Sequence record: NZ_CP118990.1
Source: a plasmid
Length of the DNA stretch: 64,000 nucleotides
Strand: one strand, 5' to 3'
Part shown: positions 5,633 to 43,889 of the stretch, in pieces
How the letters are laid out: each line of letters opens with the position of its first letter
How positions within the stretch are numbered: position 1 is the stretch's first letter
Notes under the pieces: model-generated
Seen by the model: only the letters and a program-made list of their open reading frames with translations
Told to the model about the DNA's origin: nothing
Database searches by the model: none
Translations under genes and position numbers: made by a program

Positions 5633-6271
5633 TTGGCTGGTTCATTGTTCAACGAGAAGGTGACGACAGTGGAAGCTATAAAGCGATTCATCGTCTGGGT
5701 GAATTACGGTCTTGAGGGGGGGAGCATGTACGGCTCTAGCAACGATTGGAAAGAAGCCCTCTCCCTTCGCCTGGATGCGATAGAAGGGGGTGGCAATGAC
5801 AAAGGGGATGTCTTCGTGACCGAGAGCAAAGAAGCGCTGGTGGCTGAGACCGAATTGACAGAATGGCACCGGGAGCTCGAAGCGGTGCTGATGGCCCTGG
5901 ATGATTGTCAGTTGGAGTGCGATGGCATGACTTGGGCCGTGAGTCACCTATTGAAGGCGGCCGGGATCCCCCACGATTGCATGAGCGGCATAGTGAGGAA
6001 CGAGCAGACCAAAGACATTGTGACCCCTCACTACTGGATAGCTCTCAATGGGGGTTGGGTGGTGGACCTTCGGCTCCGGATGTGGTTCGGGGACCATGAT
6101 GAGGTTCCCCATGGAATCTTTCACTCTCTAAGCGAACCGGGCTTCTTCTACCAGGGTGAGCTCGTCCAACAACACCAAGGAATGCGGTTATCGAGGGCGG
6201 TACTGGACATGATGACCGATGGAAAAATTTCACATGTGAAAATTCCATCGCTACAAAGCGGAGAGAAGTAG
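5633..6271 (+). CDS. Hypothetical protein
   Basis: 212-aa ORF; no recognisable motif; operator palindrome overlaps its 3' end. Confidence 0.35.
   Translation: MAGSLFNEKVTTVEAIKRFIVWVNYGLEGGSMYGSSNDWKEALSLRLDAIEGGGNDKGDVFVTESKEALVAETELTEWHRELEAVLMALDDCQLECDGMTWAVSHLLKAAGIPHDCMSGIVRNEQTKDIVTPHYWIALNGGWVVDLRLRMWFGDHDEVPHGIFHSLSEPGFFYQGELVQQHQGMRLSRAVLDMMTDGKISHVKIPSLQSGEK
6224..6245. promoter_or_regulatory. Palindromic operator-like site (AAAAATTTCACATGTGAAAATT), family member 1
   Basis: Core TTCACATGTGAA at 6229-6240, 30 bp upstream of ORF 6273. Confidence 0.5.
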
Positions 6272-6272
6272 A

Positions 6273-6818
6273 GTGGAACTGAACTACGACAAAGAAGTAT
6301 CGGACGCACACTTGGCAGCTGCCGGTTGGGGGATGGACGCTTTCAATCATTCCAACCCTTTCGAAAGCCATGTCATCTACGTGCGAGACTATCGGAGCGA
6401 CAACACTAGGCTGTTCACCATCAGGCAGGATGAGTTCGATGTGATCCGTGTCCCTGCCCACCAGCCAATCGAGGTGATGACTTCTATCATTGCAGCGTCA
6501 ATGATAAAGCTCGCTCGGGGAACACTAAAAATCAACGAAAACTCAGGGCTGGCTCACGCCTTGGTGGGCTACGCCAAAGCAACTCAGACATACCGCCAGT
6601 GGCGTCTTGTCGCTGGTGCAAAAGAGCGTCTGCACTTAATCCTCAATATCTACCCTACTCGTGGTGATGACGGACTACTCAGACCCATTATCCTGCGCAC
6701 CCCTGAAACAGTCCTGAGCACGACCGAAGTTCTCATGACCGCAGCCCAAATCCGGGATGTGGATAGAGTTAATCACCCCGAGTGGTTCAAGACCAAAAAG
6801 CTCGGCGGCCGGAGGTAG
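6273..6818 (+). CDS. Hypothetical protein
   Basis: 181-aa ORF, tightly packed with neighbours. Confidence 0.4.
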   Translation: MELNYDKEVSDAHLAAAGWGMDAFNHSNPFESHVIYVRDYRSDNTRLFTIRQDEFDVIRVPAHQPIEVMTSIIAASMIKLARGTLKINENSGLAHALVGYAKATQTYRQWRLVAGAKERLHLILNIYPTRGDDGLLRPIILRTPETVLSTTEVLMTAAQIRDVDRVNHPEWFKTKKLGGRR

Positions 6819-6820
6819 TG

Positions 6821-7351
6821 ATGAAGCTTGTTCTCTGGATAGGAGCCCTGATCATTGCCCCCTTCGTCATCGCCAAGGTGGATTTGTGGCGCCGACGCGG
6901 CATCGGTGAGGCCTGGGGCTGGTGGGAAACAGAGAACATGCCTCATGAGCTGCGTACCGCGACCCTGTTCCTATCGGAGCAGGACATCGCGACTTCCCTG
7001 CCGGTGCCGATGCACGGCAGGGTTGACCAGGTGTACAAGACCAAGCGGGGGGTGCTCATCCCGCTTGATACCAAATCTCGTCCGATGACTCGCGTCTACG
7101 AATCGGACATCATTCAGCTCTCGGTTTACCGGATCATCCTGTTGCATCAGTACAACGTCCCCGTCGCCAACTACGGCTACGTCAGGACTGTGACTGAAAC
7201 CTCAACCGGGGAGCGAGTCCGTTACATCAAGACAAAACTGCTCAGCGAAAGGCAAGTGGTCAAGCTATGGCGGCGCTATCAGTCGATACGCTCCGGCCAG
7301 ATGACACCATCCTGTACCTGTGGTGGTGATTTCCACTCAACATCACGTTGA
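6821..7351 (+). CDS. Hypothetical membrane-anchored protein, possible PD-(D/E)xK-like motif (GRVDQ...LIPLDTKS)
   Basis: GGAGG RBS 6 nt upstream of ATG 6821; N-terminal TM helix; weak nuclease-like motif only. Confidence 0.4.
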   Translation: MKLVLWIGALIIAPFVIAKVDLWRRRGIGEAWGWWETENMPHELRTATLFLSEQDIATSLPVPMHGRVDQVYKTKRGVLIPLDTKSRPMTRVYESDIIQLSVYRIILLHQYNVPVANYGYVRTVTETSTGERVRYIKTKLLSERQVVKLWRRYQSIRSGQMTPSCTCGGDFHSTSR

Positions 7352-7402
7352 GTGTTTGGTTGTTTACTCGGGCCGATTGGCCCTTTTCCCATGGAGAGGC
7401 AT

Positions 7403-8314
7403 ATGTGGTTCAAAAACTTGAGCGTCTATCGTTTCACCCGTCCATTCGAGCTCACTGCGGAGCAGCTGGAGACCCAGCTTGAAACCTGTGCTTTCACCCC
7501 CTGCGGTAGCCAGGACATTTCCAAGTTCGGCTGGGTTAAACCCCTTGGCAAATTCGGTTCGATGCTGACCCACTCAGCACAAGGTCACATCCTCATCTGC
7601 GCTCGCAAGGAAGAGAAGCTCCTGCCGACAGCCTTCGTTAACGAGCAGCTGGCCGAGAAGATCGAAGAAGTGGAGCATGAGCAGGGCCGAGCCCTCAAGA
7701 AGAAGGAAAAGGCAGCTCTGAAAGAGGAACTGCTGCACTCCCTGCTACCTCGTGCATTCAGCCGCACAAACCAGACACTGGCTTGGCTGAATCCCGCAGA
7801 GAACCTGCTGGTGGTCGATAGCAGCTCAGCCAAGAGGGCAGACGATCTGCTGGCACTGCTGCGCAAATCCATTGGCTCCCTGCCTGTGGTGCCGGTGGCT
7901 CTCAAGAACCCGCCCGAGATCACCATGACCGAGTGGCTGAACGAGGGTAATCTCCCCGCCAGCTTCACCCTGGAAGACGAAGCTGAGCTGCGGAGCGCCA
8001 TGGAGGAAGGAGGAATTATCCGCTGCAAGAAACAGGACCTGATGACTGATGAGATCAAGCATCACCTGTCCAACGACAAACAGGTAACCAAGCTGGCCTT
8101 GACCTGGGGGGATACCCTGAGCTTCGTACTGGGGGACGATCTTTCCATCAAGCGGCTCAAGTTCAGCGAGGAGCTGCGCGAGCAGAACGATGATGTGAGT
8201 AATGAAGACCCCGCGGCCCGGATTGATGCGGACTTTGCCCTGGTGACTGCTGAGCTGTCACAGTTTATCCCAGCCCTCTTTGCTGCCCTGGGGGGCGAGG
8301 AACAGGCTCAATAG
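7403..8314 (+). CDS. rdgC: Recombination-associated protein RdgC
   Basis: N-terminus MWFKNLSVYRF... and overall ~303-aa length match RdgC; RBS GGAGAGG before ATG 7403. Confidence 0.8.
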   Translation: MWFKNLSVYRFTRPFELTAEQLETQLETCAFTPCGSQDISKFGWVKPLGKFGSMLTHSAQGHILICARKEEKLLPTAFVNEQLAEKIEEVEHEQGRALKKKEKAALKEELLHSLLPRAFSRTNQTLAWLNPAENLLVVDSSSAKRADDLLALLRKSIGSLPVVPVALKNPPEITMTEWLNEGNLPASFTLEDEAELRSAMEEGGIIRCKKQDLMTDEIKHHLSNDKQVTKLALTWGDTLSFVLGDDLSIKRLKFSEELREQNDDVSNEDPAARIDADFALVTAELSQFIPALFAALGGEEQAQ

Positions 8315-8324
8315 GGAGATACCG

Positions 8325-9083
8325 ATGTATCACGCTTTCGACCTTTTCAGCATCATTTCTCTTGTGCTGATTATTGCCGTAATCGTTATCGCTCTGTTCC
8401 AACTGAACAGACCGGCGACGATAGTTCTTTCATCACCAAGTTGGCTGATTGTGCTCATGAGCCCAGCAACAGTATTACCTCTTGTCCCCATCTTATTTTC
8501 ACTGTGGATTGTAGGATCCTCCTACTTATATGGGGCTACTGCTGGGAACATCTTTGGGCTCATTTTTACAGGCTTCTGCTACTACGCATTTCACGCGATC
8601 CTGCACAAAGGAGCGAGATTTTTCATGTCAAAACCGGTTAGGGAGTTGCAGTGGTGGATCGACTACCGTGGCAACTTCCATCCGCACTTAATCATCATGA
8701 ATAACACTGACAGGACACATTTCAGCAAGAGGAAGGAAAAAGCGTTAAGCCTGCTGGCCGACATTGAGGAAGCCGGTCCATTTGGCAGACCCATTGTAGT
8801 GAAAACGCCGTTCAAGCTTGATTACCTGTCAGCCCGTTTGGCTAGACAGGGATGGAAGATCGAGAGACGCCCCGCCTCCAGTTGTCCCTGGATTGTGCGA
8901 GTCGCGCTCCTGATGCGACGCGGGAAATTACAGTTACCGATACCTTCAAATGGCTGGAGGCTCAAGCTGCCTACTCGTCGCGATTGGCGAGACCTTGCCA
9001 TGATGCACCATGCGGTACTCTCCCCTCCCAGCTATCCAAGTGTTGAGATCACTCCATCAGCAGCAAGACTGCTCAGGGATTAG
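8325..9083 (+). CDS. Hypothetical membrane protein (N-terminal multi-TM, C-terminal soluble domain)
   Basis: RBS GGGAGA before ATG 8325; hydrophobic N-terminal ~110 aa. Confidence 0.4.
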   Translation: MYHAFDLFSIISLVLIIAVIVIALFQLNRPATIVLSSPSWLIVLMSPATVLPLVPILFSLWIVGSSYLYGATAGNIFGLIFTGFCYYAFHAILHKGARFFMSKPVRELQWWIDYRGNFHPHLIIMNNTDRTHFSKRKEKALSLLADIEEAGPFGRPIVVKTPFKLDYLSARLARQGWKIERRPASSCPWIVRVALLMRRGKLQLPIPSNGWRLKLPTRRDWRDLAMMHHAVLSPPSYPSVEITPSAARLLRD

Positions 9084-9115
9084 TCACAGGATATGAGGGA
9101 GCTATCCCCAGAATT

Positions 9116-9124
9116 TGTGGATAA
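9116..9124 (-). promoter_or_regulatory. DnaA box (TGTGGATAA)
   Basis: Perfect 9-mer complement of TTATCCACA. Confidence 0.3.
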
Positions 9125-9138
9125 AACGAGCTCAACTT

Positions 9139-9163
9139 AGGCCCCTAATCGGGGCCTTTTTTT
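9139..9163 (+). terminator. Rho-independent terminator (aggcccctaatcggggcctttttttg)
   Basis: GC hairpin + T7 run after ORF 8325-9083. Confidence 0.7.
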
Positions 9164-9203
9164 GCCTACAGAACGGCGGAGCTGTCAGCAGAAAGGGGGG
9201 GGG

Positions 9204-9223
9204 AAATTTCACATGTGAAATTT
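9204..9223. promoter_or_regulatory. Palindromic operator-like site AAATTTCACATGTGAAATTT, family member 2
   Basis: Perfect 20-bp palindrome, preceded by a G9 homopolymer. Confidence 0.5.
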
Positions 9224-9725
9224 TCTTCGACTGACCGAAAGAAGGGTAGTCATATTTGACGGGTTGGAACGCCGAGGATACACTAGACATATATGACTAC
9301 ATGGCGAGAGTTCATCACTATCCGGCGATACCGAAAAGGGCACTGGTTTGGGGGATGCAGACCCTTTGCTGATGGCGATGTCGTGCTTGCTTGGAAAATG
9401 AAGGGGCCAGACCCAGCTGGTCAGGCTGTTGAAAACAACGACGAGACAACCATCAATTCCGAGGGGTGATGACCATGGCTAAGCGCACCACGATTTGTAT
9501 AGATCGACTGTTCCATGACTTCCAGCTCTGCCAACACTTCGGCTATCCCTGCCGTTTTACTGTTGGCCGCAACACCGGGTATGGGCCCAGCGTGGTCGCG
9601 GCGTTGGAAAAGCGTGGATACACCCTGGTCAAGGTGCGCAAGAGTTGTTTCGAGATCACTGGCGTCCAAGGTGGGCCTGACAAGACAAGCTGAGTTGGCC
9701 CACCAGCAGTTTGAAGGGGAGGCAG

Positions 9726-11861: not shown

Positions 11862-11958
11862 AACACACCCCTAGCAACCTGTAAGTAAGCTGTACATAAC
11901 TACGTATAAGCTGTTGAAAAGCATAAATTAAGGCCCTATTGAGCCCCATAAAATGACC

Positions 11959-12128
11959 TGTTTGGGGGTTAAAACTTGACTATTTGGGGGTTAAAACCAC
12001 CTTATTTGGAGGTCAAAAAACTCTGTGTGGGGGTCAAAATACCCAATATGGAGGCCAAAATATACTGTTTGGGGGTTAAATTGATGTGCTTGGGGGTTAA
12101 TGTGGGCTGTTTGGGGGTTAAATTTAAG
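11959..12128. repeat. Eight direct repeats with 21-22 bp periodicity (consensus ctgTTTGGGGGTTAAAa): iteron- or centromere-like array
   Basis: Copies start at 11961, 11983, 12005, 12026, 12047, 12068, 12089, 12110. Confidence 0.8.
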
Positions 12129-12176
12129 ATTTAATTCAATTAAAACAACCGGTTGCGAGCTCTATCTTTTATCCTT

Positions 12177-12250
12177 GATCCTTTATCTATGATCTTAGGA
12201 TCTAAAGAGGATCTAAAGAGGATCTACAGAAGATCTACAGATCAGGGATC
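12177..12250. promoter_or_regulatory. GATC-dense block: 8 Dam sites in 74 bp, with ~5 tandem 11-12-bp GATCTAMAGAR repeats (oriC-13-mer-like); AT-rich stretch 12121-12150 just upstream
   Basis: ggatctaaagaggatctaaagaggatctacagaagatctacagatcagggatctaaat read directly. Confidence 0.55.
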
Positions 12251-12868
12251 TAAATAATTAAAGGACTAAAAAATTATAAGTTGTTCTCTCAACACATTTT
12301 TCGATGCTCTCGTTTGGCTTCCGTTGGGGAGAGCAAGCAAGTCCCAGGGATGCGATATGAGGCCATCTATGCAAGCTTGCTGCGATAAGTCATTACCTAT
12401 ACTAAAAAAACGCCGCACAGAGCGTCACAGCGCAGCTGTGTGGCATCCTCAAGGTGGGCGTGGTGCACCCAGCAGGTTTTGCCGGGATCCAAGCCTGCCC
12501 ATGATGGATCCTCGCTATCCTGTTGTCGGTTCCCGTGAGCTTCACTCTCATCTGACTTAACAGCCAAATTGGAACGATCCACCGCTTGATTTAACCCCCA
12601 AACACAAAAGTCCCTGTTCGCTGGGAGCATCACTGTTAACAAGCCGATGACCATCTTTGGGCATGACTCAATCCCTCCATTCCCCACTCGCAACACCTAT
12701 CAATCCGCAACGAACACGAGTCGTACTAGCAGAACGCTGGTGGTTTATGTTGTTTACAGTATCATAAAGTGATGCTATGTTTTACGGGGTAGCTTAAAGC
12801 AAACAGGTAACAGCGTGGTGATGCTCGACCCTGTTCGGCGTTGCATGTGCCGCCATACCAGCAGGAAA

Positions 12869-12888
12869 AAATTTCACATGTGAAATTT
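12869..12888. promoter_or_regulatory. Palindromic operator-like site AAATTTCACATGTGAAATTT, family member 3
   Basis: Perfect palindrome ~90 bp upstream of ORF 12979. Confidence 0.5.
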
Positions 12889-12978
12889 TAGCGGTGTTGG
12901 TGCCCAATCCGGGCAGTTTCGCGGGCTTGCATTTTTGGGAAATCCTGTAGGCTTGCTGGCATGAAAAGGAGATAAGCA

Positions 12979-13452
12979 GTGACCCAGTTTAAACGCAGCC
13001 GCGTCATCATGTTCGGCGCCTTTGCTCTATCAGGAGCTTTAGCAATCAGTGGAATGAATCTCCTAGCGTTGCTCTTTGGTTGGGTTGCTGTCTGGCAACT
13101 CACATCGAGCGCGAAGTCAGAAATGGTTCACACCAGTATCCAGGCGGCGAAGAGTGCATTTGAGTCGCTGAATGTGGTGATGTTCGATAAGCGCTGGGTT
13201 GGCGATAGAGCAACAGTAGCGAAGGTATTGCACCAACAGCTTCCAACAGTTGAGTCAAATGGGCTGTCAGTGGTGCGGGTCATAGCTGTAGCTCAGGGGG
13301 GAACTTGGTTCAGTCTGGACATGGCTGTATCAAGAGCCCAAAACGTAGAATTGCTTAACCTGCAACCGCTCAGCGAACCCGAAGCGAAGTTCATGTTGGC
13401 CTCAGACCTTGAGGCATACGAAACCTTTTTCGGAAAGCCCGATAATGCTTGA
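12979..13452 (+). CDS. Hypothetical membrane protein
   Basis: 157-aa ORF with N-terminal TM segments. Confidence 0.4.
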   Translation: MTQFKRSRVIMFGAFALSGALAISGMNLLALLFGWVAVWQLTSSAKSEMVHTSIQAAKSAFESLNVVMFDKRWVGDRATVAKVLHQQLPTVESNGLSVVRVIAVAQGGTWFSLDMAVSRAQNVELLNLQPLSEPEAKFMLASDLEAYETFFGKPDNA

Positions 13453-13462
13453 GGACAAAGTG

Positions 13463-13756
13463 ATGGAAAAGACCAATGAAGTGAGCGGCGCGGAGTTCAC
13501 GGCCGAAGAAAAAAAAGCAATGAACCATGCTGCCTATGCCCAGTGCATCTTCATCCTGGCCCAGGTTCTGCTGTACCCGGCCCTCGGGGCGACTGGCGCC
13601 ATCTTGGCCGCGTTCTGTGGAATGATGCCGTGGCTGCCCCGCTTCGTTAAACAAGCACCGTCGAAGGCCTTTGGTATGGTGCTGGCCTCTGTCTGCCTGG
13701 CTCCACTTTATGCCAAGGTTTGCACCTTCATCGTAACAGCTGTCCAGGGCATTTGA
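13463..13756 (+). CDS. Hypothetical small membrane protein
   Basis: ORF in 13409-13756 frame; start choice uncertain; followed by terminator. Confidence 0.3.
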   Translation: MEKTNEVSGAEFTAEEKKAMNHAAYAQCIFILAQVLLYPALGATGAILAAFCGMMPWLPRFVKQAPSKAFGMVLASVCLAPLYAKVCTFIVTAVQGI

Positions 13757-13806
13757 TTCACCTGGCCTGGACGCAGGTTTAGTGAAAGGGAGTGCGGTAA
13801 TCCCAG

Positions 13807-13834: not shown

Positions 13835-13913
13835 GAATGGAAAATCCTTCCTGCCTCATGCCCTCCAGCAGAACTCAGCGTCCTGACTATTTTCCCATCA
13901 GGAGTGGTTTGAC

Positions 13914-14780: not shown

Positions 14781-14800
14781 AAATTTCATATGTGAAAGTT
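14781..14800. promoter_or_regulatory. Operator-like site, variant (AAATTTCATATGTGAAAGTT), family member 4
   Basis: 2 mismatches from the 20-bp consensus. Confidence 0.4.
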
Positions 14801-15604: not shown

Positions 15605-15624
15605 AAATTTCACATGTGAAATTT
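15605..15624. promoter_or_regulatory. Palindromic operator-like site AAATTTCACATGTGAAATTT, family member 5
   Basis: Perfect palindrome ~45 bp upstream of nuclease gene. Confidence 0.5.
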
Positions 15625-15669: not shown

Positions 15670-16203
15670 ATGACAGTCGATGTGCAATCAGTCCATAAAT
15701 TTGGCAGGGCAATCCTGCTGCTCACTCTTGGCTTGACTTCGCCCTTTGTGTCGGCCGAGACCTTTACTGGTCAAGTCGTCGGTGTTTCCGATGGCGATAC
15801 GGTCAAGGTTCTGACAGAACAAACCTGTAATTCCGGGGAAGAATGCCGAAGTGGTAAAGTGCAGTACCGGGTTCGGTTGGCCGAGATCGATGCTCCCGAG
15901 AAGAAGCAGCCATTTGGCTCAAAGGCCAAGGCTGCACTGTCGGAGCTGGTGGCTGGGCAGATGATCACCGTTGAGCAAGTGGACAAAGACCGCTATGGCC
16001 GTCTGGTTGCCAATCTCTACGCCGATGGCAAATGGGTAAACGCCGAGATGGTCCGCTCAGGTGATGCCTGGGTGTACCGCCAATACGCTAAAACCCCTGA
16101 GCTATTCCAATTGGAAGAAGAGGCAAGGGAAGGGAAGCGCGGCCTCTGGGCTCTGCCTGAACAGGAACGGACTCCTCCCTGGGAATGGCGTAAAGCGCAC
16201 TAA
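15670..16203 (+). CDS. Secreted thermonuclease (staphylococcal nuclease/SNase-like) family protein
   Basis: Signal peptide, then [12 protein letters not shown]...RLAEIDAPE...DRYGRLVA...GLW motifs characteristic of SNase fold. Confidence 0.7.
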
Positions 16204-18680: not shown

Positions 18681-18890
18681 GTGAAGTGAACGAGAAAGAC
18701 ATGGAACAACGAATTGCGGCGGCACAGCCAAAGCTCAAAGCGTGGTTCGCGTGGAATGAGCCACCACAGATTAGATTTGTACTGACAACACAAACTCTTA
18801 CAAAAAACGGCCATTGGCCGTTTTTGCTTTGTGAATGTTTTTACAGCACCATCATAAGAGATTGCAGCATCATTTTATGAACGATAGAAT

Positions 18891-18910
18891 GTTTCACATG
18901 TGAAAGTTTG
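18891..18910. promoter_or_regulatory. Operator-like site, variant TGTTTCACATGTGAAAGTTT, family member 6, 45 bp upstream of parA
   Basis: Core TTCACATGTGAA perfect; flank TGTTTCAC resembles parS half-site. Confidence 0.5.
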
Positions 18911-18953: not shown

Positions 18954-19739
18954 ATGGCAAAAGTCATCAGCTTCGCCAACCAGAAAGGCGGAGTGGGTAA
19001 GAGCACCATATGTATCCAGCAAGCCTTTTATCTGTCGATGAAAAAGAAGAAGAAAGTGCTGGTTGTGGACATGGATGGTCAGGGCAATACGTCCTCTCGG
19101 CTGGCTGCCAAGCGCGAGCTTGAAGATGGCGAGTTCGAGCCGGTTTTTTCGGGCACGAAGACAGCAGAGCTGTTTGCCCATGAGATCTCGCACATCGAAG
19201 TCATGCACTGTCCATGCGGGGCGGACCTCATTCACACTCCAAAGAATGACCCGGATTTGTTTGAGATGGAGGCGGTGCCTCTGGATCAAGCTATGAACCC
19301 CGCCCGTCACTTGGCTGTGCTTTTTGAGCAATATGACTATGTGCTGATAGATTGCGCACCGAGCCTCGGCAGAAAGCTTGTGGCCGCGCTGGTGATGTCT
19401 ACCCATGTTGCATGTCCGGTAAAGCTATCAGGGTTCGCTGTAGACGGCGTGGAAGGCCTACTCAACACCATCATCGGTGTTAGGGCCGAGTACAACCCGG
19501 CGTTGGAGATCCTAGGGATTTTAATTAACGATATGGATCGCTCTGTCAACCATGACAAATCCCTAAAGGCACTTCAAAAAGAAGTGCCGGAGCTCCTGTT
19601 CCAGAACAAGATTATGCACCGTCCGCCTCTGGACACCGCAACCACCGATGGCGTTCCTGTGTGGGAATTGCAGTACGGCCATGTTGCAGCGAAAGAGGTG
19701 CAAGCTGTGTTGGAAGAAATGATAGAGAAGGTGGGTTAA
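18954..19739 (+). CDS. parA: ParA-family partition ATPase
   Basis: Deviant Walker A KGGVGKST, 261 aa. Confidence 0.85.
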   Translation: MAKVISFANQKGGVGKSTICIQQAFYLSMKKKKKVLVVDMDGQGNTSSRLAAKRELEDGEFEPVFSGTKTAELFAHEISHIEVMHCPCGADLIHTPKNDPDLFEMEAVPLDQAMNPARHLAVLFEQYDYVLIDCAPSLGRKLVAALVMSTHVACPVKLSGFAVDGVEGLLNTIIGVRAEYNPALEILGILINDMDRSVNHDKSLKALQKEVPELLFQNKIMHRPPLDTATTDGVPVWELQYGHVAAKEVQAVLEEMIEKVG

Positions 19740-19741
19740 CG

Positions 19742-20905
19742 ATGGCTCTTGGTAACCTCAAAGGTCTTTCCGAGCTCGCTAATGTCGCGAAGGGAAAGAC
19801 AGGCAAGCAGGTATTAAGTGTGCCTGTTGAAGATGTGGTTTCGAAGGCGCAGGTTCGTAAGCGCTTTCGGAACATTGAAGAACTTGCGGCAACTCTCGTT
19901 ACAGAAGGCCAGCAATCACCGATCATTGTTTCCCCCAAGGGCGAGGATGGTAAATACGTCATCCAGAAGGGAGAGCGACGTTGGAGGGCCTGCAAACATG
20001 CAGACATTCCAACGATCGACATCATTGTCAATGATAAGAACCAAGGCGAACTGGATGAGACCGCTGGGGAGCTGATAGAGAACATACAGCGTGATGATCT
20101 TACACCGTTGGAAATAGCAGAAGCGCTGGACAAATTCGTCAAAGCGGACTGGAAGAAAAAAGACATCGCTCTACGTCTGGGCGTGAACAATTCGTTCGTC
20201 TCGTCGCATTTGTCATTATTGAAGATGCCTGACTGTGTGCGTGAGCTCTATGACGGCGACATCTCTTCTGACACTGAAACCTTGAACAACCTGCGTCTAC
20301 TGTTCGAACTGAATGCTGAGCGCTGCCGAGCCATCTGTGCTGTTGCTATAACTGATGGGATCACTCGTAAGCAGAGTCGTGAGCTGCTGAATGACGCTAA
20401 GCGCATCCAGGAAGGGCTGGAGAAGGCTCAACTTTCTGGACGTGGCGGAGATAATCCTGGTGCCGGGGCAGAGAGCAATAGCGATCATCTTCCTCCAGAA
20501 CAAGAACATGTCACGTCAGTACAAGGTGACGGGCATCAGGTTGGAAGCAGTAGTGGGAATCGCAACCTCGATCCTCTTGAGGAAGGTGCAGGAGCCGGTA
20601 CAGATAACTCTACCCCTGGAGCTCCCGAAAAGCAGAATAAGGCCAACAGGACCACGATTACCGAAGGTGGGGACGCGCTTCCTCCCCTGGAAAAGGATCG
20701 GGAATGGAAGACGGCTAGGGCCGATAATCTGATCTTCGCTGTGCATGTGCTGGTGGACGATGAGGTGAGGAAGGGTGTTATCATGACTGATCGTGTAGCG
20801 CTCAATCCGTCTACCGTCTGGGTTAAGACGCTGGACAGTGCTGGAAAAGAAAAGCATCTTAATGTGCCAGCATCAGATATCGAGATTTTGAGTATCGAAG
20901 GTTAA
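19742..20905 (+). CDS. parB: ParB-family partition protein with long acidic/Gly-rich C-terminal extension
   Basis: ParB-box GERRWRA, HTH region; immediately downstream of parA. Confidence 0.8.
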   Translation: MALGNLKGLSELANVAKGKTGKQVLSVPVEDVVSKAQVRKRFRNIEELAATLVTEGQQSPIIVSPKGEDGKYVIQKGERRWRACKHADIPTIDIIVNDKNQGELDETAGELIENIQRDDLTPLEIAEALDKFVKADWKKKDIALRLGVNNSFVSSHLSLLKMPDCVRELYDGDISSDTETLNNLRLLFELNAERCRAICAVAITDGITRKQSRELLNDAKRIQEGLEKAQLSGRGGDNPGAGAESNSDHLPPEQEHVTSVQGDGHQVGSSSGNRNLDPLEEGAGAGTDNSTPGAPEKQNKANRTTITEGGDALPPLEKDREWKTARADNLIFAVHVLVDDEVRKGVIMTDRVALNPSTVWVKTLDSAGKEKHLNVPASDIEILSIEG

Positions 20906-20953
20906 GTGACAGTCCCATCTTCTAAGTCGGGACTTTATGAAAAACGGGGGCTT

Positions 20954-21235
20954 ATGGCGATTTCGCGAGACATTAAACGTAAATTTGAGCTGGTGAATGC
21001 CCTGTCGAAGAAGAACAGGCCTAGCCTCAATGATCTGCATCTCGAAACGGGTATCCCCGAATCAACCATCAAGAGGCAGATCTCCGCACTACGCGAAGAG
21101 TTCGGGATGGAGATCTTGTTCATAAGAGGGGCCCGAGGCGCACCGGGCGAACCTGGTACGGCCGGTTACTACATGCTGACGAACTGGGGAATTCTGGAAA
21201 GAGCCGCGTTCTTGAGTAGGTATGGCAAGCTATAG
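20954..21235 (+). CDS. Small hypothetical protein, possible HTH regulator
   Basis: ORF 20906-21235 frame, start ATG 20954; followed by bidirectional terminator. Confidence 0.3.
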   Translation: MAISRDIKRKFELVNALSKKNRPSLNDLHLETGIPESTIKRQISALREEFGMEILFIRGARGAPGEPGTAGYYMLTNWGILERAAFLSRYGKL

Positions 21236-22425: not shown

Positions 22426-22445
22426 AAATTTCACATGTGAAATAA
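22426..22445. promoter_or_regulatory. Operator-like site AAATTTCACATGTGAAATAA, family member 7
   Basis: ~65 bp upstream of ORF 22511. Confidence 0.5.
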
Positions 22446-22510: not shown

Positions 22511-23257
22511 ATGGCTTTGGATCACGGCATTCTCAATGTCCCGCTCACCAAGCGAAACGGCGATATGGACAAGCAACTAGCCCAGTTCACACAAGAGCGG
22601 ACCAAGGCCAGAAAAGGAGCCCACAAGGAGGCGAAGGCTAGGTACCGTGACGAGAAAGCCATTGCGCAGCGTATGCTCGACATAGCAGGCCCTCAGTTGC
22701 TTGCAGAATGGGCTGTGAAGAAGGGCATGACCGAGCGGGCCTTTCGCACTTTCTTGGTAGATCTGATTAACGACAAGCCCGGCAAGGCCAAAAAGGTACT
22801 TGAGTTGATCGTCCAGAACGGGGCACTCCCACCTCACACTCAGCCTACCGAAGACATAGCTAAAGCAGCTGTGCGCGGGCAACTGTTTGCCAGCATCTCC
22901 AGCCTCAATGTTGTGAGCAAGGCCCTTGGCTTCGATCAGAGCAAGATATATGTGACCCTTGATGGGCAGCAGATCCACGTAGCTGAAAAGGTGGCCTCTG
23001 ACAATCTGGTTCAAGCCAGCGGCAAAACGATAATGAAAGCCGTTCAGGGACAGGAGAAGATACGAGACGCTCAGCAGCTGCGCCTCATAGAACGCATCAC
23101 ACGGGGCCGCACACGCGGCGCCGGGGCGGGAGGGTTTAACCGGGACATCGGTAACATCGAGCACAGAATCAACGATGCTAACACCAAAATAAGCTTACTC
23201 CAGGGGGAACTGAAACGTCGGATCTCGACGATAGCCGTCCAGTGGCAAGCCAAGTAA
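22511..23257 (+). CDS. Hypothetical protein with C-terminal coiled-coil
   Basis: 248-aa ORF, first gene of 4-gene plus-strand block. Confidence 0.4.
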   Translation: MALDHGILNVPLTKRNGDMDKQLAQFTQERTKARKGAHKEAKARYRDEKAIAQRMLDIAGPQLLAEWAVKKGMTERAFRTFLVDLINDKPGKAKKVLELIVQNGALPPHTQPTEDIAKAAVRGQLFASISSLNVVSKALGFDQSKIYVTLDGQQIHVAEKVASDNLVQASGKTIMKAVQGQEKIRDAQQLRLIERITRGRTRGAGAGGFNRDIGNIEHRINDANTKISLLQGELKRRISTIAVQWQAK

Positions 23258-34935: not shown

Positions 34936-35097
34936 CGCGTAATTCCTTCCTTACCATCATGGATGTCCCATTCTACTGGGGGAGGAAGTGGAACCTCGTT
35001 TCTCAAACTGCCCAAATTGGACAGTTACGCAGGTGTGAGAGGAGAAATAGTTTTGAGAGCATGTAACGACGTAAAACGATGAACATGGTCAAGTTAC

Positions 35098-38000: not shown

Positions 38001-38139
38001 CAAGGCTTTTGAGGTTATCGCTGGGGAATATACCGGGATCAGTAAGCATGTTTTGGGTGGCACTTTGCGCCGAGCACAAAGGAGACCGTTGCTCAAGCAA
38101 CGCCAAGGAAAACTCTATTTGGAGGTAGATAAATCGTGA
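35098..38139 (+). CDS. traI: MOBH-family conjugative relaxase TraI (HD-domain type, SXT/IncA-C-like)
   Basis: HD motif region HHHRGAGGLFRHGLEVA...LLHDVGK; 1013 aa; followed by traD. Confidence 0.8.
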   Translation: MLSVLNKLFGWGGSKGESPQSGRLLPLKDMDEEDIPRYPPFAKGLPVAPIDKILATQAELIEKVRNSLGFTIEDFNRLVLPVIHRYAAFVHLLPASEAHHHRGAGGLFRHGLEVAFWAAQASESVIFSIEGTPKQRRDNEPRWRLASCFSGLLHDVGKPLADVSITDKNGVVTWNPYFESLHDWAGRNHVDRYFIRWREKRHKRHEQFSLLAVDRIIPVATREYLSESGPLIIEAMLEAISGTSVNQPVTKLMLRADQESVSRDLKQNRLNVDEFSYGVPVERYVFDAIRRLVKTGKWKVNEPGAKVWHLQQGVFIAWRNLGDLYDLISHDKIPGIPRDPDTLADILIERGFAVPNTVQEKGDRAYYRYWEVLPEMIQEAAGSIKILMLRLESNELVFTTEPPAAVAGEVVGDVADAVIELIDPDEASDADDESASGMSESLLSAEQEAMNALAGLGFGDAMEILGGTASDDNATQPAPVVDTTPPAKPAKGAGGRGGKNQAKKTAPAAPEQQQPEPSPQEIAKSTPPLAVENPLQAIMDVGGGLGGLDFPFDAFVAGTSMSDEPSQALAPEPKQDVANPDNPDTPNLGLMNQVFPNFMNDESTGDVGGMDLPPAWAIEEIPSFHAYEGEVGQPGNQFVSEELAGADAPDAKGELLTLMATFGEAGPILERAILPVLEGKATLGEVLCLMKGQAVILYPEGARALGAPSEILTALFHAQAIVPDPVMSGRKVQDFNGVKAIVLTEQLSSAFIAAIKQAESLLGGYQDAFELVASPEVKKTQSKKNRGQRKTSRSESSGEDSHAASPERAQVEEKRVIADAQLIDVSVEPPSPPVDTTPPPDKVVPRKESRGKEKVDKPIQPAPTTKPAEGTQNLARLPPREQPKPESQQKQARVIDVGNIALPGPDLPEELSPRSIVKEETVDEALYLPPKMTPEKAIQMLKEMIKNRSGRWLVSAVLEEEGFLTTSDKAFEVIAGEYTGISKHVLGGTLRRAQRRPLLKQRQGKLYLEVDKS

Positions 38140-40007: not shown

Positions 40008-40017
40008 GGGGTCAGCT

Positions 40018-40602
40018 ATGTGCTGTAAGAAATATGATGGATATCAGGTTGATACCTATTCCGTTAACCCGTTTGATCGCGTGATGAATGCGCTAAAAAG
40101 TCGAGGCCGTAAGAACGCCCACATTCTGAGCATCTTGCAGCTGGATTGGCCTGCGTCTGAATCGATCATCCATCGCCTGAGCGACTACATCAGTGACAGC
40201 ATCAAGGCCAACGAGGAGCCGGTGATTTATCCGATCATCGAGGAGGCCCTGCTCCGCTATAGCCAGCTGGTATTCCATGCGCAGAAGTATAAATACGAAG
40301 ATCCTGCCAGGATCAGTGCCTTTTTAGACACCCTCATCACGGAGACCTGCAAGGCCCTGGAGGTTCAAATCGCGGCAAACAGTGGGGGGGGGGCCTGGTC
40401 TGTCGATTCTGGCACCTCATTTTCGGCCTGGTGCACCGACCACCCCGGTGACCTTTCGATCACTCCCCATGCTCATGAGGACGAATCTTCTCTGCGTGGT
40501 CTGCTGTATGACCTGCTTATCTGTGAAAGCGTGAAAAATGTTCTGAGGAGAACAGACTATGAACAAGCCGTGGTTAGTGGTCGTCTGGTTGCTCACCCTT
40601 GA
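40018..40602 (+). CDS. Hypothetical conjugation-module protein (s043-like position)
   Basis: 194-aa ORF; contains G10 homopolymer at 40381. Confidence 0.4.
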   Translation: MCCKKYDGYQVDTYSVNPFDRVMNALKSRGRKNAHILSILQLDWPASESIIHRLSDYISDSIKANEEPVIYPIIEEALLRYSQLVFHAQKYKYEDPARISAFLDTLITETCKALEVQIAANSGGGAWSVDSGTSFSAWCTDHPGDLSITPHAHEDESSLRGLLYDLLICESVKNVLRRTDYEQAVVSGRLVAHP

Positions 40603-41188
40603 GCTACTCGCGATTTTGATATTGATCCCTGGGGATTGGACTGCCAGAGCGATAAAAAATGAGTCCGTTCTGGTGAAACAAAGCCTTGGTATAGAGGCTC
40701 AGGATTGGATACATAACAAGGCCACGACGTGGTACCAATCCAGCATCATTGACTCCGGTTTCTACGACGGTATGTACAAGACGTTGATCCCCTCTGAGGC
40801 TGAGCGGGCGCGGTCAAGAGGGATGGAGGGCATGGGTAAGGATTGGTTTGTGTGGGTCAATGGCCGCATGGATGCCTTTGTGAACATCATCTACCAGTTT
40901 TACACCCGAGCGGCACTCCTGCTGGCATGGGCCCCGTACATGCTGATCTTGTTCGCCCCGGCCATCTATGACGGCTGGATGACGTGGAAAATAAAGCGGA
41001 CCAACTTCGACTATGCGAGCCCCGTGCTGCATCGCTATAGCGTTCGAGGAACGATGTTCATCATGGCGGGATTGTTCATCTGCTTCTTTATCCCGTTCGC
41101 GCTCGACCCGGTTGTCATTCCTCTGACGATGATGGCCTGCTGTGTGCTGGTGGGCCTGACTGTCAGCAACTTCCAGAAACGAGTTTGA
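40559..41188 (+). CDS. Integral membrane protein at the TraJ-like position of the SXT-type gene order
   Basis: 209 aa, 4 TM helices; conserved position after traD/s043 in SXT-type gene order. Confidence 0.45.
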   Translation: MNKPWLVVVWLLTLELLAILILIPGDWTARAIKNESVLVKQSLGIEAQDWIHNKATTWYQSSIIDSGFYDGMYKTLIPSEAERARSRGMEGMGKDWFVWVNGRMDAFVNIIYQFYTRAALLLAWAPYMLILFAPAIYDGWMTWKIKRTNFDYASPVLHRYSVRGTMFIMAGLFICFFIPFALDPVVIPLTMMACCVLVGLTVSNFQKRV

Positions 41189-41323
41189 TAGCGAAAGCCC
41201 TACCGTTGGCGGTGTCTGCATCTGGCATGAACCAGCGGTAGGGAGAGCTAGTCTGGCGAGTGATATTACTCAGTCAGGGCCACGAAGGCACCAGCAGGTG
41301 CGTTTGCAAAAGATGATCAGGAG

Positions 41324-41722
41324 ATGATGGTGATGAAATTACAAAGTTGTTTGCAGCTGATTATGGTAGCAGTGGGAGTGCTGGTGGCTGGTCAAGCTAC
41401 TGCTGCATCGGGCGATACTAACAACACCGATAAGATTACGGCTCTGGATGCGGCCTGTCCCAGCTGTGTGAAGGTGGCGAACGATGTAATGGCTATTCGG
41501 GCGGAGCATTGTCAGCTCAAGAACACATCGGCCGAGATGATGATTAGCACCATGCGCAATGATCCAATGTATGGCTTTATGCAGGCTGTTGACTCGATGG
41601 TGGAGCCTGCGACTTATAAGACCATTCTGACGACCGCAGCAACCCAGGTCGATTGCGGCAACCCGCAAAACTGGATCGACATGACGCAGAAGGCGCTCAA
41701 GAAGAGCACCCCAAAAAGTTAG
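41324..41722 (+). CDS. Hypothetical secreted protein
   Basis: Signal peptide, 4 Cys. Confidence 0.4.
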   Translation: MMVMKLQSCLQLIMVAVGVLVAGQATAASGDTNNTDKITALDAACPSCVKVANDVMAIRAEHCQLKNTSAEMMISTMRNDPMYGFMQAVDSMVEPATYKTILTTAATQVDCGNPQNWIDMTQKALKKSTPKS

Positions 41723-41745
41723 CTGATTCGATTTCATGGCTGCGT

Positions 41746-41788
41746 GCGAACCGCTAAAAAATTTCACATGTGAAATTTTTTAGCGTTC
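41746..41788. promoter_or_regulatory. Extended 43-bp palindrome centred on operator core AAATTTCACATGTGAAATTT, family member 8
   Basis: cgaaccgctaaaaaatttcacatgtgaaattttttagcgttcg, one unpaired base. Confidence 0.55.
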
Positions 41789-42184
41789 GTGTGCGATCTC
41801 GGTGTGGTGACAGTAGAGCCCAAGCAGCAACCGCTGCAAAGTTGAGGGAAAAACGGCCATGAAATTTTGAGTCTGCCAGATGCCGAGCGTGAAGCGGTGC
41901 TGGCGGCCATGCAGGAGGAGGTTATGTCCCAACTGCATGGTTATGACGACAACTGATCAGGGAAAAACGGGATGGCTCGTTGGTACAGCAAACAGCGCAA
42001 ACAGCGCATGAATGGTGACTTCTTGAAGTATGGATTTATCCCAGGCCGTGGCCGCATCGCCCTTGAACAAAAGCCTTGCCACTTTGCCAGTCACCTGGAT
42101 TTGTGCGAGTTCACCGGCGATTGCGATTGCAAGGGCGCTACTTACTGGAGAGAGCAGGCGACAGCCGTCTGAGTTAGAGGAGTA

Positions 42185-42481
42185 TTGATGGATCTGCTCA
42201 TAGCCAAACAACAAGCCAACCCCGTTGAATATTATGTCGAGGCATACGCCCAGCATCCTGATAAGCCGGGAATTTTTTGCTCTTATCGCGGCACAGTTAG
42301 CCGTGAAGGTCTGATCATTTCAGGTGAGGATTTCGATTGCCTCCTCAACGGGTTTATTGACCACATATTTGTCGAGACTGGTGTTCGTTGCCATAGCAGC
42401 ACAATCAAGCTCCACAAGCTGCAACTGGTTCAAGACGACAATTTTCGTAAGTTGTTTGAGGTAGATGAGCAACATTGCTAA
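42185..42481 (+). CDS. Hypothetical protein
   Basis: 98-aa ORF. Confidence 0.3.
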   Translation: MMDLLIAKQQANPVEYYVEAYAQHPDKPGIFCSYRGTVSREGLIISGEDFDCLLNGFIDHIFVETGVRCHSSTIKLHKLQLVQDDNFRKLFEVDEQHC

Positions 42482-42692
42482 GTCAGAGGAGTACACGATG
42501 GACGAGAACGAGAACAAGCTCATCACTGTATCGAATCAACTCAAGGTCGGGCCTGCTCTGGCTACCTTGTCGGTTTGTTTTTTAGTTCTGGCGGGCCACC
42601 TGTCCTGGTGGGTGATCTTGATAGTGTTTCTATGGGGTTTGGACGACTCGATAACCATCAACTGGCGCAAACTGTTTCGTCGCTGGAGTTAA
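42465..42692 (+). CDS. Small hypothetical membrane protein
   Basis: 75 aa, one TM pair. Confidence 0.3.
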   Translation: MSNIAKSEEYTMDENENKLITVSNQLKVGPALATLSVCFLVLAGHLSWWVILIVFLWGLDDSITINWRKLFRRWS

Positions 42693-42704
42693 GGAGAAAG
42701 CCGC

Positions 42705-43043
42705 ATGATGAGGCTGATCTGGGTGTTGGGTGCAAGCGGCTTTTTATCCGGCTGCGATGCCTTTGATGACCTGGCTGCTGCCCAGCAGCCCAAGACTATC
42801 GAGATCGTCGGCGGTTACCAGGTGCAGATTAACGGGCAGCCGGTGGCTATCGCAGGCACCAGCCTGTGCCGGTCCCATAAGAGTCGGCATGACTGTATCG
42901 TAGTTACCCCTGACACTAGCGTGGTCGAGGTACTGGTCGTCTATCTAGGGCAGTCGCTCCGCGAAGCCTGGACGGTCAAACGAGTAGGGGAGCTGCGGCA
43001 ACTGTTACGGGGCGATGGCAGCACGGTTATGGTGGCGAACTGA
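42705..43043 (+). CDS. Hypothetical lipoprotein
   Basis: Lipobox LSGC. Confidence 0.45.
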   Translation: MMRLIWVLGASGFLSGCDAFDDLAAAQQPKTIEIVGGYQVQINGQPVAIAGTSLCRSHKSRHDCIVVTPDTSVVEVLVVYLGQSLREAWTVKRVGELRQLLRGDGSTVMVAN

Positions 43044-43056
43044 TAGAGGAGTAGTC

Positions 43057-43527
43057 ATGGCAAAGCTTGGCATGGCTGTGATCATGAAAATGCGGTGGCT
43101 GGGGGATAATGCTGTGGATGTGGCGGACCTTCTGCCAGACCATAATTTTCACCATAAAGATGGTGTTCTGATCATTCACCAGCACGGCGGTGACGTCAGA
43201 ATACCGAAAGGTGGGAGGTTCGCCGTTGATGATGCTGGCCATGCCCATAAAGTATTGATGCTCACAAGACAGTTTACTTTGAAACCAAACGGTACTGTGA
43301 CGGCCTGCCCGAGGTGTAGCAACAACACTGAATTTATCGGCTGCTCAATTCAAGTGGTAGAGGACTGCTGCGAAGTGTTTGTGATTTGCAGGTGTAACTT
43401 TGATCCGACAGAACAGAACACTGACCACCGCTATGAGGATGTAATGGGTAGCTTGAATCATGACAATCTCATGGTTGCTCTGTCGTGCTGGAATAGGGCC
43501 CTCGCCGATGCAGCAGCAACCAGCTGA
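43057..43527 (+). CDS. Hypothetical Cys/His-rich protein
   Basis: ORF 43015-43527 frame, start ATG 43057 after GGAG RBS. Confidence 0.35.
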   Translation: MAKLGMAVIMKMRWLGDNAVDVADLLPDHNFHHKDGVLIIHQHGGDVRIPKGGRFAVDDAGHAHKVLMLTRQFTLKPNGTVTACPRCSNNTEFIGCSIQVVEDCCEVFVICRCNFDPTEQNTDHRYEDVMGSLNHDNLMVALSCWNRALADAAATS

Positions 43528-43569
43528 ATGCTTGTCTCCGCCGCAAGATCGTTAAAGAAATAATAGGAG

Positions 43570-43821
43570 GTGCTCATGGCGGGCGTGAAAGTCAGTGAGC
43601 TGGAATACCAAGGTCGGCTGGATGGTCGTCATGCCTGGGTGCATGATGGATTCTGGTTCTACTGGACAGAGAAAGCCAACGTGGTGACGTCAGATCTGGC
43701 TGGGCTGGAGCCATTCTGCCTACTTCGCTTGGCATTGGTCCGGGGCGAGCAGAACTCCATTCGAGCATTCACGAAAACAGATGCCAAGCGCGGGATCATC
43801 GATATGTTGAACCGTAAATAG
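43570..43821 (+). CDS. Hypothetical protein
   Basis: 83-aa ORF with GGAGG RBS. Confidence 0.35.
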   Translation: MLMAGVKVSELEYQGRLDGRHAWVHDGFWFYWTEKANVVTSDLAGLEPFCLLRLALVRGEQNSIRAFTKTDAKRGIIDMLNRK

Positions 43822-43857
43822 ATAGGGTTCTGACTGAATTCCAACAAGCTGTTCGGC

Positions 43858-43889
43858 AGTAAAAAATTTCACATGTGAAATTTTTTACT
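43858..43889. promoter_or_regulatory. 32-bp perfect palindrome agtaaaaaatttcacatgtgaaattttttact, family member 9
   Basis: Read directly. Confidence 0.55.

Follow-up and report, generated by a model that had tools for sequence, protein, structure and literature searches.

The closest described counterpart of the palindromes reported here is parS of the IncC plasmid R55, which has the 14-bp core TTTCACATGTGAAA and is present in 14 dispersed copies (Kiss lab, NAR 2024, PMC10954446). Purified R55 ParB binds these sites in EMSA, and binding is lost when 4 bp are inserted at the centre of parS. A parS replicon is stabilised by ParA together with ParB, surplus parS copies cause incompatibility, and ParB represses the parA promoter, PparA, where a parS overlaps the -10 element. 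The bare core is not bound and flanks are needed, with a conserved right-flank GT emphasised by the authors; the third gene of the operon, 053, gave no contribution to parS-dependent stabilisation (PMC10954446). The same 14-bp core is found in the parS mimics DR1/DR2 of SGI1, which serve to hijack the IncC ParAB; these differ from the sites described below in being two copies with IncC-type flanks on a chromosomal island that lacks par genes.

Two more distant systems are relevant. KorB of the IncP-1 plasmids RK2/RP4 is encoded right after a ParA partner, autoregulates its own operon, has some twelve palindromic sites spread over the plasmid and represses many promoters in cooperation with KorA/TrbA. 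Its OB operator is the 13-bp sequence TTTAGCSGCTAAA, which is unrelated to TTTCACATGTGAAA. OB operators are described in PMC10954446. Chromosomal ParB/Spo0J proteins likewise have a ParA partner and carry the motifs GERRxRA and ENxQR; their parS is TGTTTCACGTGAAACA, with the half-site TTTCAC/GTGAAA.

A comparable set of sites is found in the window, i.e., the whole 64-kb stretch of plasmid DNA analysed. The window is backbone DNA of a conjugative plasmid of the Aeromonas pAsa4 type, which is distantly related to IncA/IncC. The par region is 99.8% identical to that of pAsa4b, and pAsa4 has been described in the literature as a distant relative of A/C plasmids. An IncA or IncC replicon was ruled out, as the near-identical pAsa4b is typed rep_cluster_71 in PLSDB, where pRA1 is IncA and pAR060302 is IncC.

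By analogy with R55, the nine palindromes of the window are very probably the parS (centromere) sites of the plasmid's own type Ia system, parA-parB-053 (18954-21235). Observed here are the identity of the core, the protein architecture, the conservation of site positions, the promoter geometry and the co-occurrence of core and ParB homologs. ParB binding, stabilisation by ParA and ParB and repression of PparA have been shown in R55 only and would carry over to the pAsa4-type ParB. Given that analogy, the role of the palindrome would be essentially explained already by the 2024 IncC work.

Copies of the palindrome and their distribution

A pattern search of the 64 kb with the 20-mer AAATTTCACATGTGAAATTT gave nine matches at up to three mismatches, with none expected from 100 dinucleotide-preserving shuffles; the earlier note was right that the palindrome family is dispersed and beyond chance. 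Five of the nine are perfect 20-mers. The 14-bp core is exact in eight, and no additional core copies at up to two mismatches were found across the whole 64 kb. Six of the coordinates listed earlier stand; those given as 6224, 18891 and 41758 are shifted by 1-2 bp (Table 1).

Table 1. Palindrome copies, promoter elements and par genes in the window
Feature	Position	Strand	Sequence (mismatches per 20-mer)	Setting or basis	Nt to next start codon	Position in pRA1; pAR060302
parS copy 1	6225..6244		AAATTTCACATGTGAAAATT (1)	Inside last ~15 codons of CDS 5633-6271; next start at 6273	28	5488; 5680
parS copy 2	9204..9223		perfect (0)	Before small ORF at 9293; terminator-like hairpin 9139-9157 upstream, G9 homopolymer adjoining left side	69	
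parS copy 3	12869..12888		perfect (0)	Upstream of gene 12979-13452	90	6567; 6759
AcaCD-type activator box	12897..12924	+	TTGGTGCCCAATCCGGGCAGTTTCGCGG	Begins 11 bp past parS core; PWM scan and alignment		
parS copy 4	14781..14800		core variant TTTCATATGTGAAA at 14784, 1 core mismatch (2)	Immediately past dsbA stop codon	18	10150; 12031
parS copy 5	15605..15624		perfect (0)	Upstream of thermonuclease gene 15670-16203	45	
Predicted parA promoter	18862..18890	+	-35 TTGCAG 18862-18867; -10 TAGAAT 18885-18890	17-nt spacer		
parS copy 6	18889..18908		ATGTTTCACATGTGAAAGTT; core exact at 18892-18905 (3)	Before parA ATG	45	
parA	18954..19739	+		Walker-type partition ATPase; AAA_31 and CbiA matches; annotation		
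parB	19742..20905	+		KorB-type; domain matches; predicted binder of the palindromes		
053	20954..21235	+		Homolog of IncC orf053 (69% identical); winged HTH; third operon gene		
parS copy 7	22426..22445		AAATTTCACATGTGAAATAA (2)	Upstream of gene 22511-23257	65	33477; 38226 (flanking DNA unalignable)
parS copy 8	41759..41778		perfect (0)	36 nt past stop of gene 41324-41722	193	
parS copy 9	43864..43883		perfect (0)	42 nt past stop of ORF 43570-43821; upstream of traL	~470 (recalculated for traL at ~44356)	

Copy 1 lies within a CDS and the other eight copies are intergenic. In the first 23 kb, six of seven sites fall within DNA that is unannotated in pAsa4b and makes up at most 29% of the sequence (binomial ~0.003, by hand arithmetic from the pAsa4b annotation). 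A scan of the whole pAsa4b replicon gave 17 copies, 14 of them intergenic, compared with a published range of 7-14. All are restricted to the conserved backbone, with no palindrome in the accessory regions (Tn7-like/tetE, Tn21/mer, T6SS). Many copies dispersed in a conserved backbone are also characteristic of R55. A point against the partition reading is that the copy number exceeds what a centromere needs, which leaves room for an additional function.

Five of the nine site positions (cores 6228, 12872, 14784, 18892 and 22429) are common to the window, pRA1 and pAR060302, and the core is retained even at two places where the flanks cannot be aligned. Copy 5 is lineage-specific, with no counterpart at its position in pRA1 or pAR060302. 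Further afield, six more lineages, whose ParB proteins are 42-55% identical, have the exact 14-mer in 1-13 copies at up to 8-21 kb from their parA-parB(-053) operons; the chance expectation is ~8e-5 per 21 kb. In one of the six, an E. coli plasmid, the cores form a tandem array with a period of ~47 bp. To our knowledge, E. coli has no chromosomal ParB. The motif travels with plasmid ParB homologs, E. coli included, which sets it apart from chromosomal parS. An orphan chromosomal homolog has no core in its vicinity. The likeness to the chromosomal half-site pointed out earlier is correct: TTTCAC-AT-GTGAAA is the chromosomal core with two extra central bp, which alter the half-site spacing. The chromosomal 16-bp parS itself was rejected as a candidate, with none of the nine copies matching its spacing.

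The par operon and its promoter

The ParB of the window has a ParB_N CTPase domain with the motifs GERRWRA and ENIQR (PF02195, E 2.6e-13), a KorB DNA-binding domain (PF08535, E 4.3e-30, exceeding the gathering cut-off), a low-complexity linker and an SH3-like C-terminal domain whose fold matches KorB-C, the dimerisation domain of KorB. Among PDB sequences, KorB 8qa8 is the best match. Sequence identity to RK2 KorB is low, with a phmmer E of 1e-19 across the N-terminal and DNA-binding domains. Compared with chromosomal ParB, the DNA-binding domain is of KorB type and the SH3-like domain takes the place of the chromosomal dimerisation domain. Identity to IncA/IncC ParB is only 65-67% overall and reaches 79% across the N-terminal and DNA-binding part. 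The earlier proposal of ParB as a KorB-like protein that binds the centromere and regulates agrees with this full KorB architecture, the 79% identity and the R55 parS core.

The operon has the same parA-parB(KorB domain)-053 order as in R55. As 053 is a winged HTH protein encoded in the par operon and conserved with it across the family, it might be asked whether 053, or some other small repressor, binds the palindrome while ParB uses another centromere; the R55 data also hint that PparA has a further regulator, encoded elsewhere than in the par operon (PMC10954446). Such an arrangement is very unlikely. Purified R55 ParB shifts parS sites by itself, 053 is dispensable for parS-dependent stabilisation (PMC10954446), and the surroundings of the par operons in relatives showed no other repeated palindrome that could be an alternative centromere. 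The dedicated small wHTH repressor suggested in the earlier note finds no support.

At the parA promoter, the copy 6 20-mer shares 2 nt with the end of the -10 element, and its core covers the expected transcription start. The arrangement of promoter and parS aligns with, and is kept in, pRA1 and pAR060302. Copy 6 itself keeps the IncA/IncC-type right flank GTTTGGGGGT. A parS likewise overlaps the -10 element of PparA in R55 (PMC10954446). Given its placing over the -10 element and start site, copy 6 (18889-18908) is the predicted autoregulatory operator of the par operon.

The partition reading suggests the following mechanism. Dimers of the KorB-type ParB would recognise the invariant 14-bp core and a few flanking bases. 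ParB probably loads at parS as a CTP-dependent clamp and spreads or slides along the DNA. Loaded ParB would form partition complexes, to be segregated to daughter cells by the ParA ATPase. Copy 6 would double as the operator for repression of the par operon by ParB, and the other copies in backbone intergenic DNA would be additional loading sites. These might also modulate nearby promoters, e.g., the AcaCD-dependent promoter at ~12.9 kb.

Promoters near the other copies

It is plausible, if tentative, that the palindromes form a KorB-like global operator network, in which many backbone promoters are repressed or tuned by ParB from scattered sites, either directly or at a distance as a sliding clamp, with 053 or the like as a possible co-factor. 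Such a network would extend the partition reading and excludes nothing in it. The complete KorB architecture of ParB is consistent with it. So is the placing of the sites: eight of nine lie between genes, and seven of nine precede a plus-strand start by 18-90 nt. RK2 KorB is described as a CTP clamp that silences over long distances (PMC11790492). The R55 authors point to parS beside four AcaCD promoters; they also describe an effect on replication control at the SGI1 PS004 promoter and term the global-regulator idea 'ongoing' (PMC10954446).

In the window, copy 3 lies beside an AcaCD-type box identified with a PWM built from PMC4207636 Table 1. The parS-to-box arrangement (12869-12924) is kept in IncA/IncC by alignment. 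The position appears to be that of the AcaCD-regulated R55_9/vcrx012 promoter of PMC10954446, a correspondence drawn through pRA1 and pAR060302. Against a network, an adjacent AcaCD box is found at this one site of nine only. Clear operator geometry is confined to PparA, and a consensus promoter scan gave no sigma-70-like promoter overlapping the other eight sites. For two sites the next gene is 190-470 nt away, another site is within a CDS, and a fourth is wedged between a stop codon and the RBS that follows. The earlier note placed most copies 45-100 bp ahead of a plus-strand gene, which holds for gaps of 69, 90, 45, 45 and 65 nt but not for those of 28, 18, 193 and ~470 nt. In the sister system of R55, the roles demonstrated are limited to partition and autorepression of PparA. 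With operator geometry at parA only and the pAsa4b sites confined to the backbone, an element-wide operator over both backbone and cargo operons, as first proposed, is not borne out.

Flanks and extended symmetry

The flanks differ from those of R55. At seven of nine sites they consist of an A-run and a T-run (AAAAA-core-TTTTT) instead of the R55 type AAAC-core-GTTT, which is approached at PparA; the right-flank GT is present only at 14781 and 18889. In pRA1 and pAR060302, C/G flanks were found at all 14 sites examined. The change to A/T goes together with a Ser/Thr difference in the recognition helix of ParB. Counting against the parS reading, seven of nine sites lack the right-flank G, so the details of recognition must differ from R55, or the flank requirement is not base-specific.

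Beyond about ±5 bp, the flanks of the window copies are unrelated, with at most 40% ungapped identity and a mean of 31%, which is background. The earlier note had named conserved flanks beyond the palindrome as the mark of a MITE-like repeat; none are present, and the copies are therefore not a MITE. More broadly, it is extremely improbable that the palindromes are MITE/REP-like mobile or selfish repeats, or RNA hairpins or terminators, instead of protein-binding sites. Several copies do follow a stop codon by 36-42 nt and could form extended hairpins. Copy 8 sits in a copy-specific extended palindrome of ~46 bp (CGAACCGCTAAAAAA...TTTTTTAGCGTTCG), and the sequence window around it folds at ΔG -27.6 kcal/mol. 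However, the 20-mer alone gives merely -3.2 kcal/mol, the outer arms differ from copy to copy, no U-run follows the hairpins and a terminator scan flagged none of the nine sites. In IncA/IncC, the copies function as parS although they have no extended arms.

The extra dyad symmetry at several pAsa4-type copies is a further difference from IncA/IncC. Pairing of the outer arms exceeds that of 95% of random positions at six of the 17 pAsa4b sites, and three pAsa4b copies outside the window have a common intergenic module of ~130-150 bp, both of which would suit a mobile or hairpin-forming repeat. ParB binding has no obvious need for this copy-specific symmetry, which counts against the parS reading. 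The extended arms may, however, be a neutral outcome of quasipalindrome template-switch 'perfection' in the surroundings of a long perfect palindrome.

Palindromic sites and the par operon

A mismatch-tolerant search for AAATTTCACATGTGAAATTT finds exactly nine matches in the 64-kb window and none in 100 dinucleotide-preserving shuffles of it. This bears out the repeated palindrome described in an earlier note on this DNA; most coordinates in that note are right, and three are shifted by one or two bases. Five copies are perfect 20-mers (starts 9204, 12869, 15605, 41759 and 43864). Eight of the nine copies have the 14-bp core, TTTCACATGTGAAA, without any change, and the copy at 14784 has one mismatch in it. 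Further copies of the core with ≤2 mismatches were not found in the whole window. The palindromes are predicted to be parS centromere sites of a KorB-type ParABS system, with the copy at parA doubling as a putative autoregulatory operator.

The par region of the window is 99.5-99.8% identical to pAsa4-type plasmids of Aeromonas salmonicida and A. caviae, and ∼77% identical to Enterobacterales IncC plasmids. Because its close relative pAsa4b is typed as rep_cluster_71 (conjugative, MOBH, MPF_F), the window replicon is a relative of the IncA/IncC plasmids and not a member; pAsa4 has been termed a 'distant relative of A/C plasmids' in the literature. The third gene of the par operon is 69% identical to IncC 053, and a relaxase, traD and the traL block follow downstream. 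The block containing the parA promoter, PparA, is nearly invariant in an alignment of the window with the IncA plasmid pRA1 and the IncC plasmid pAR060302, the comparators used in place of the IncC plasmid R55 (JQ010984). The PparA arrangement matches that described for R55, where a parS copy overlapping the -10 of PparA mediates repression by the par operon (PMC10954446).

A G9 homopolymer (window 9195-9206) immediately adjoins parS copy 2; pAsa4b has G5 followed by two additional A's at this position. The left flank of this copy is thus altered by tract-length variation. Between a minus-strand 711-aa open reading frame and parS copy 3 lies ∼1.1 kb (11862-12978) that carries no annotated gene.

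Features of the par region, related loci and neighbouring boxes (L004 and L005 are parts of the pAsa4b record; L026 and L028-L032 are loci of ParB relatives)
Feature	Record	Position	Remarks
parA	window	18954-19739	ATG at 18954
parB	window	19742-20905	
Small winged-HTH gene (053 homolog)	window	20954-21235	third in operon
PparA -35, TTGCAG	window	18862-18867	17-nt spacer to -10; read manually
PparA -10, TAGAAT	window	18885-18890	read manually
parS core at PparA	window	18892-18905	3' of -10
AcaCD box beside parS	window	12897-12924	11 bp after core; PWM scan; conserved in IncA/IncC
Other AcaCD boxes, strong matches	window	35000-35032; 44266-44293; 47483-47510; 54186-54213	PWM scan
Extended palindromes	window	41734-41803; 43850-43900	
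Extended palindromes	L004	59664; 62405	
Extended palindromes	L005	105334; 116082; 120908	
Repeated parS module	L005	100460-100700; 105245-105480; 115990-116230	outside window
FlhC-family homolog	pAsa4b	177124-177690	
Tandem parS array	L029 (CP100851)	5001-5395	
Extra HTH_ParB / ParB_C proteins	L029	8072-8989	
Extra HTH_ParB / ParB_C proteins	L030	12746-13264; 18138-19040	
Extra HTH_ParB / ParB_C protein	L031	13374-13892	
Extra HTH_ParB / ParB_C protein	L032	11947-12459	
A/T-flanked core bracketing distant parAB	L026 (Phytohalomonas tamaricis NZ_PVRV01000021)	1139-3380	42% identical
A/T-flanked core bracketing distant homolog	L028 (Marinospirillum celere)	1358-2255	33% identical

ParB and its proposed sites

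From the operon, promoter, site-position and family-wide co-occurrence tests taken together, ParB is predicted with high confidence to bind the window palindromes. The earlier note was right to propose ParB, and the resemblance it saw to chromosomal parS is judged correct. Of the nine sites, five (6228, 12872, 14784, 18892 and 22429) have counterparts at matching backbone positions in pRA1 and pAR060302. Two of these, 12872 and 22429, retain an intact core amid intergenic DNA that is unalignable with these plasmids, the mark of selection acting on the core.

Homologs of ParB fall into 601 clusters at E ≤ 1e-10, and the neighbourhood sample consisted of the DNA around six diverse homologs plus one further locus from a pattern scan. 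Every sampled locus with a ParA partner carries 1-13 exact 14-mers within 8-21 kb, where ∼8e-5 per 21 kb is expected by chance. These loci are an E. coli plasmid, two metagenome/Logan contigs with parA-parB-053, Marinobacter, another Logan contig and Phytohalomonas; their ParBs are 42-55% identical to that of the window. The sole sampled locus lacking the core has an orphan chromosomal ParB homolog without parA. In the E. coli plasmid, CP100851, eight exact cores and one 2-mismatch copy form a tandem array with a period of ∼47 bp, a classic centromere layout.

The spacers of this array are C-rich, and it lies 4 kb upstream of the parA-parB-053 operon. Part of the DNA-binding region is duplicated within the CP100851 ParB (51% identical, 409 aa). 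Small additional HTH_ParB / ParB_C proteins are encoded near the par operon in relatives, some directly adjoining a parS copy, and in R55 a 'parB-like regulator' lies beside one parS site.

A full-text literature search with the 14-mer returned a single paper (PMC10954446, NAR 2024), and no further work was found on pAsa4 parS or, after 2024, on IncC ParB regulation. Purified R55 ParB shifted three 14-mer sites, and binding was lost on a 4-bp central insertion. A parS-bearing replicon was stabilised only when ParA and ParB were both supplied, with no contribution from 053 (PMC10954446). These experiments contradict a dedicated repressor such as 053 as the binder. IncC plasmids carry 7-14 parS copies and IncA plasmids 10-14, and two parS mimic sites are present on the genomic island SGI1 (PMC10954446). 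pAsa4b, with 17 copies per replicon, exceeds the published range of 7-14.

The comparative result is no new kind of system: this one is already known and was experimentally characterised in sister IncC plasmids in 2024, the window being a slightly variant member. What is extended here is the invariant 14-bp core, common to ParBs down to 42% identity, around which the flanks vary. IncA/IncC-family plasmids are major multidrug-resistance carriers, and pAsa4-type plasmids carry resistance in the fish pathogen A. salmonicida. With centromere and binder known, the sequences setting partition incompatibility are identified. Genomic islands could exploit the plasmid or drive it out via its centromere, as SGI1 does to IncC, and cloned parS copies could be a simple plasmid-curing handle. 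The remaining points of interest are a possible shift in flank specificity and possible regulation by ParB outside its own operon.

Flanks of the core and the recognition helix

Runs of A and T border the core (AAAAA core TTTTT) in the window, in pAsa4b and in pHX3, a plasmid of A. veronii, whereas at all 14 sites examined in pRA1 and pAR060302 the adjoining base is C or G (AAAC core GT). The PparA site is an exception, keeping GTTTGGGGGT, a C/G-type right flank, in all lineages. R55 ParB needed the flanks of the core, with emphasis placed by the authors on the GT at the right (PMC10954446); thus either the details of recognition differ in the pAsa4 lineage or the need for flanks does not depend on particular bases. 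The recognition helix of ParB reads VSSHL...KMP in all three A/T-flank lineages (window, pHX3 and Phytohalomonas) and VSTHL...KLP in all seven C/G-flank lineages, although these ten lineages are not independent of one another. The Ser-for-Thr change is residue S155 of the window ParB, and its correlation with flank type is a lead and no demonstration. Strict co-variation of flank and ParB is rejected: the flanks of CP100851 are mixed (C...C), so the flank is not palindromic-specific in any simple way, and correlation with Ser/Thr is confined to the A/T-versus-C/G split.

Flank variation around an invariant core offers a concrete hypothesis for the way in which related plasmids may be spared interference in partition. 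If S155 reads the flank, pAsa4 partition would be orthogonal to that of IncA/IncC and resistant to SGI1 parS decoys, and the PparA operator, with its C/G-type right flank, would be a deliberately weaker autoregulatory site. That the pAsa4 centromere is a specificity-shifted version of the IncA/IncC one, its 17 dispersed sites, some beside AcaCD promoters, possibly forming a KorB-like silencing network, seems unlikely.

A genome-wide scan with the A/T-flanked 18-mer gave 21 stretches, mostly singletons compatible with chance, as a palindromic 18-mer has only nine free positions; an SGI1-like decoy island was not identified among them. A relationship seems likely only for Phytohalomonas (with parAB), Aeromonas lacus and possibly Marinospirillum. 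A/T-flanked cores bracket distant homologs in Phytohalomonas and Marinospirillum (table), both on large contigs. This suggests that the range of the ParB/parS pair includes elements of Halomonadaceae and Oceanospirillales, which may be integrated.

Dispersed sites and extended palindromes

The earlier note read the palindromes as a candidate element-wide operator, which is possible but unproven; a broader regulatory role of ParB has been raised only as work in progress (PMC10954446). The note's claim of global control goes too far; operator geometry is seen at PparA alone. One of the nine sites is within a coding sequence, and distances to the next start codon range widely (in site order 28, 69, 90, 18, 45, 45, 65, 193 and ∼470 nt). 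Control of 'cargo operons' is not borne out: all 17 pAsa4b copies are in backbone DNA, and the complete sequence has none in transposon, integron, tetE or T6SS regions. A consensus scan for sigma-70 promoters overlapping the sites was uninformative, with 11 promoter-like matches against 12.8 expected, and only the manually read PparA is convincing.

A weight matrix (PWM) built from published boxes (PMC4207636) places a box for AcaCD, an FlhDC-type activator, beside one of the nine sites. It seems to match the R55_9/vcrx012 promoter, to which the R55 authors drew attention. The other boxes are far from any parS, and general parS-AcaCD coupling is rejected. AcaCD boxes are found 5' of mobH and the gene divergent from it, ahead of traL and within the tra region. 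From the box matches and the FlhC-family homolog of pAsa4b, the AcaCD regulon logic appears conserved in pAsa4-type plasmids.

A MITE-like repeat with conserved flanks, which the earlier note had set against an operator, is rejected for the window: past about five A's or T's per side, flank identity among the nine copies is background (pairwise mean 31%, maximum 40%). A terminator or RNA hairpin is not supported either. The 20-mer alone folds at -3.2 kcal/mol, no site of the nine was flagged by a terminator scan and no U-run follows the hairpins.

Several parS copies lie within longer palindromes (for example GCCGCTAAAAAA, core, TTTTTTAGCGGC), the copy at 41759 forming a ∼46-bp hairpin (deltaG -27.6). 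Their GC-rich outer arms vary between copies, so the extended palindromes are not a shared element. Outer-arm pairing is above 95% of random positions at 6 of 17 pAsa4b sites versus 0 of 14 in IncA/IncC (binomial ∼0.005, three duplicated copies counted as one locus). A structural role of the arms is possible; the favoured account is that template-switch mutation neutrally 'perfected' a long perfect palindrome outwards. The arms at 41759 differ from those of the pAsa4b counterpart, yet still pair.

Three pAsa4b copies are in a repeated intergenic module of ∼130-150 bp, with right-hand 40-nt flanks 92-100% identical. The order is a G/C hairpin, CTTTCC...parS...GGAAAG and ∼70 conserved bp; the module may represent duplication of a terminator-parS-promoter cassette that lies between small genes.
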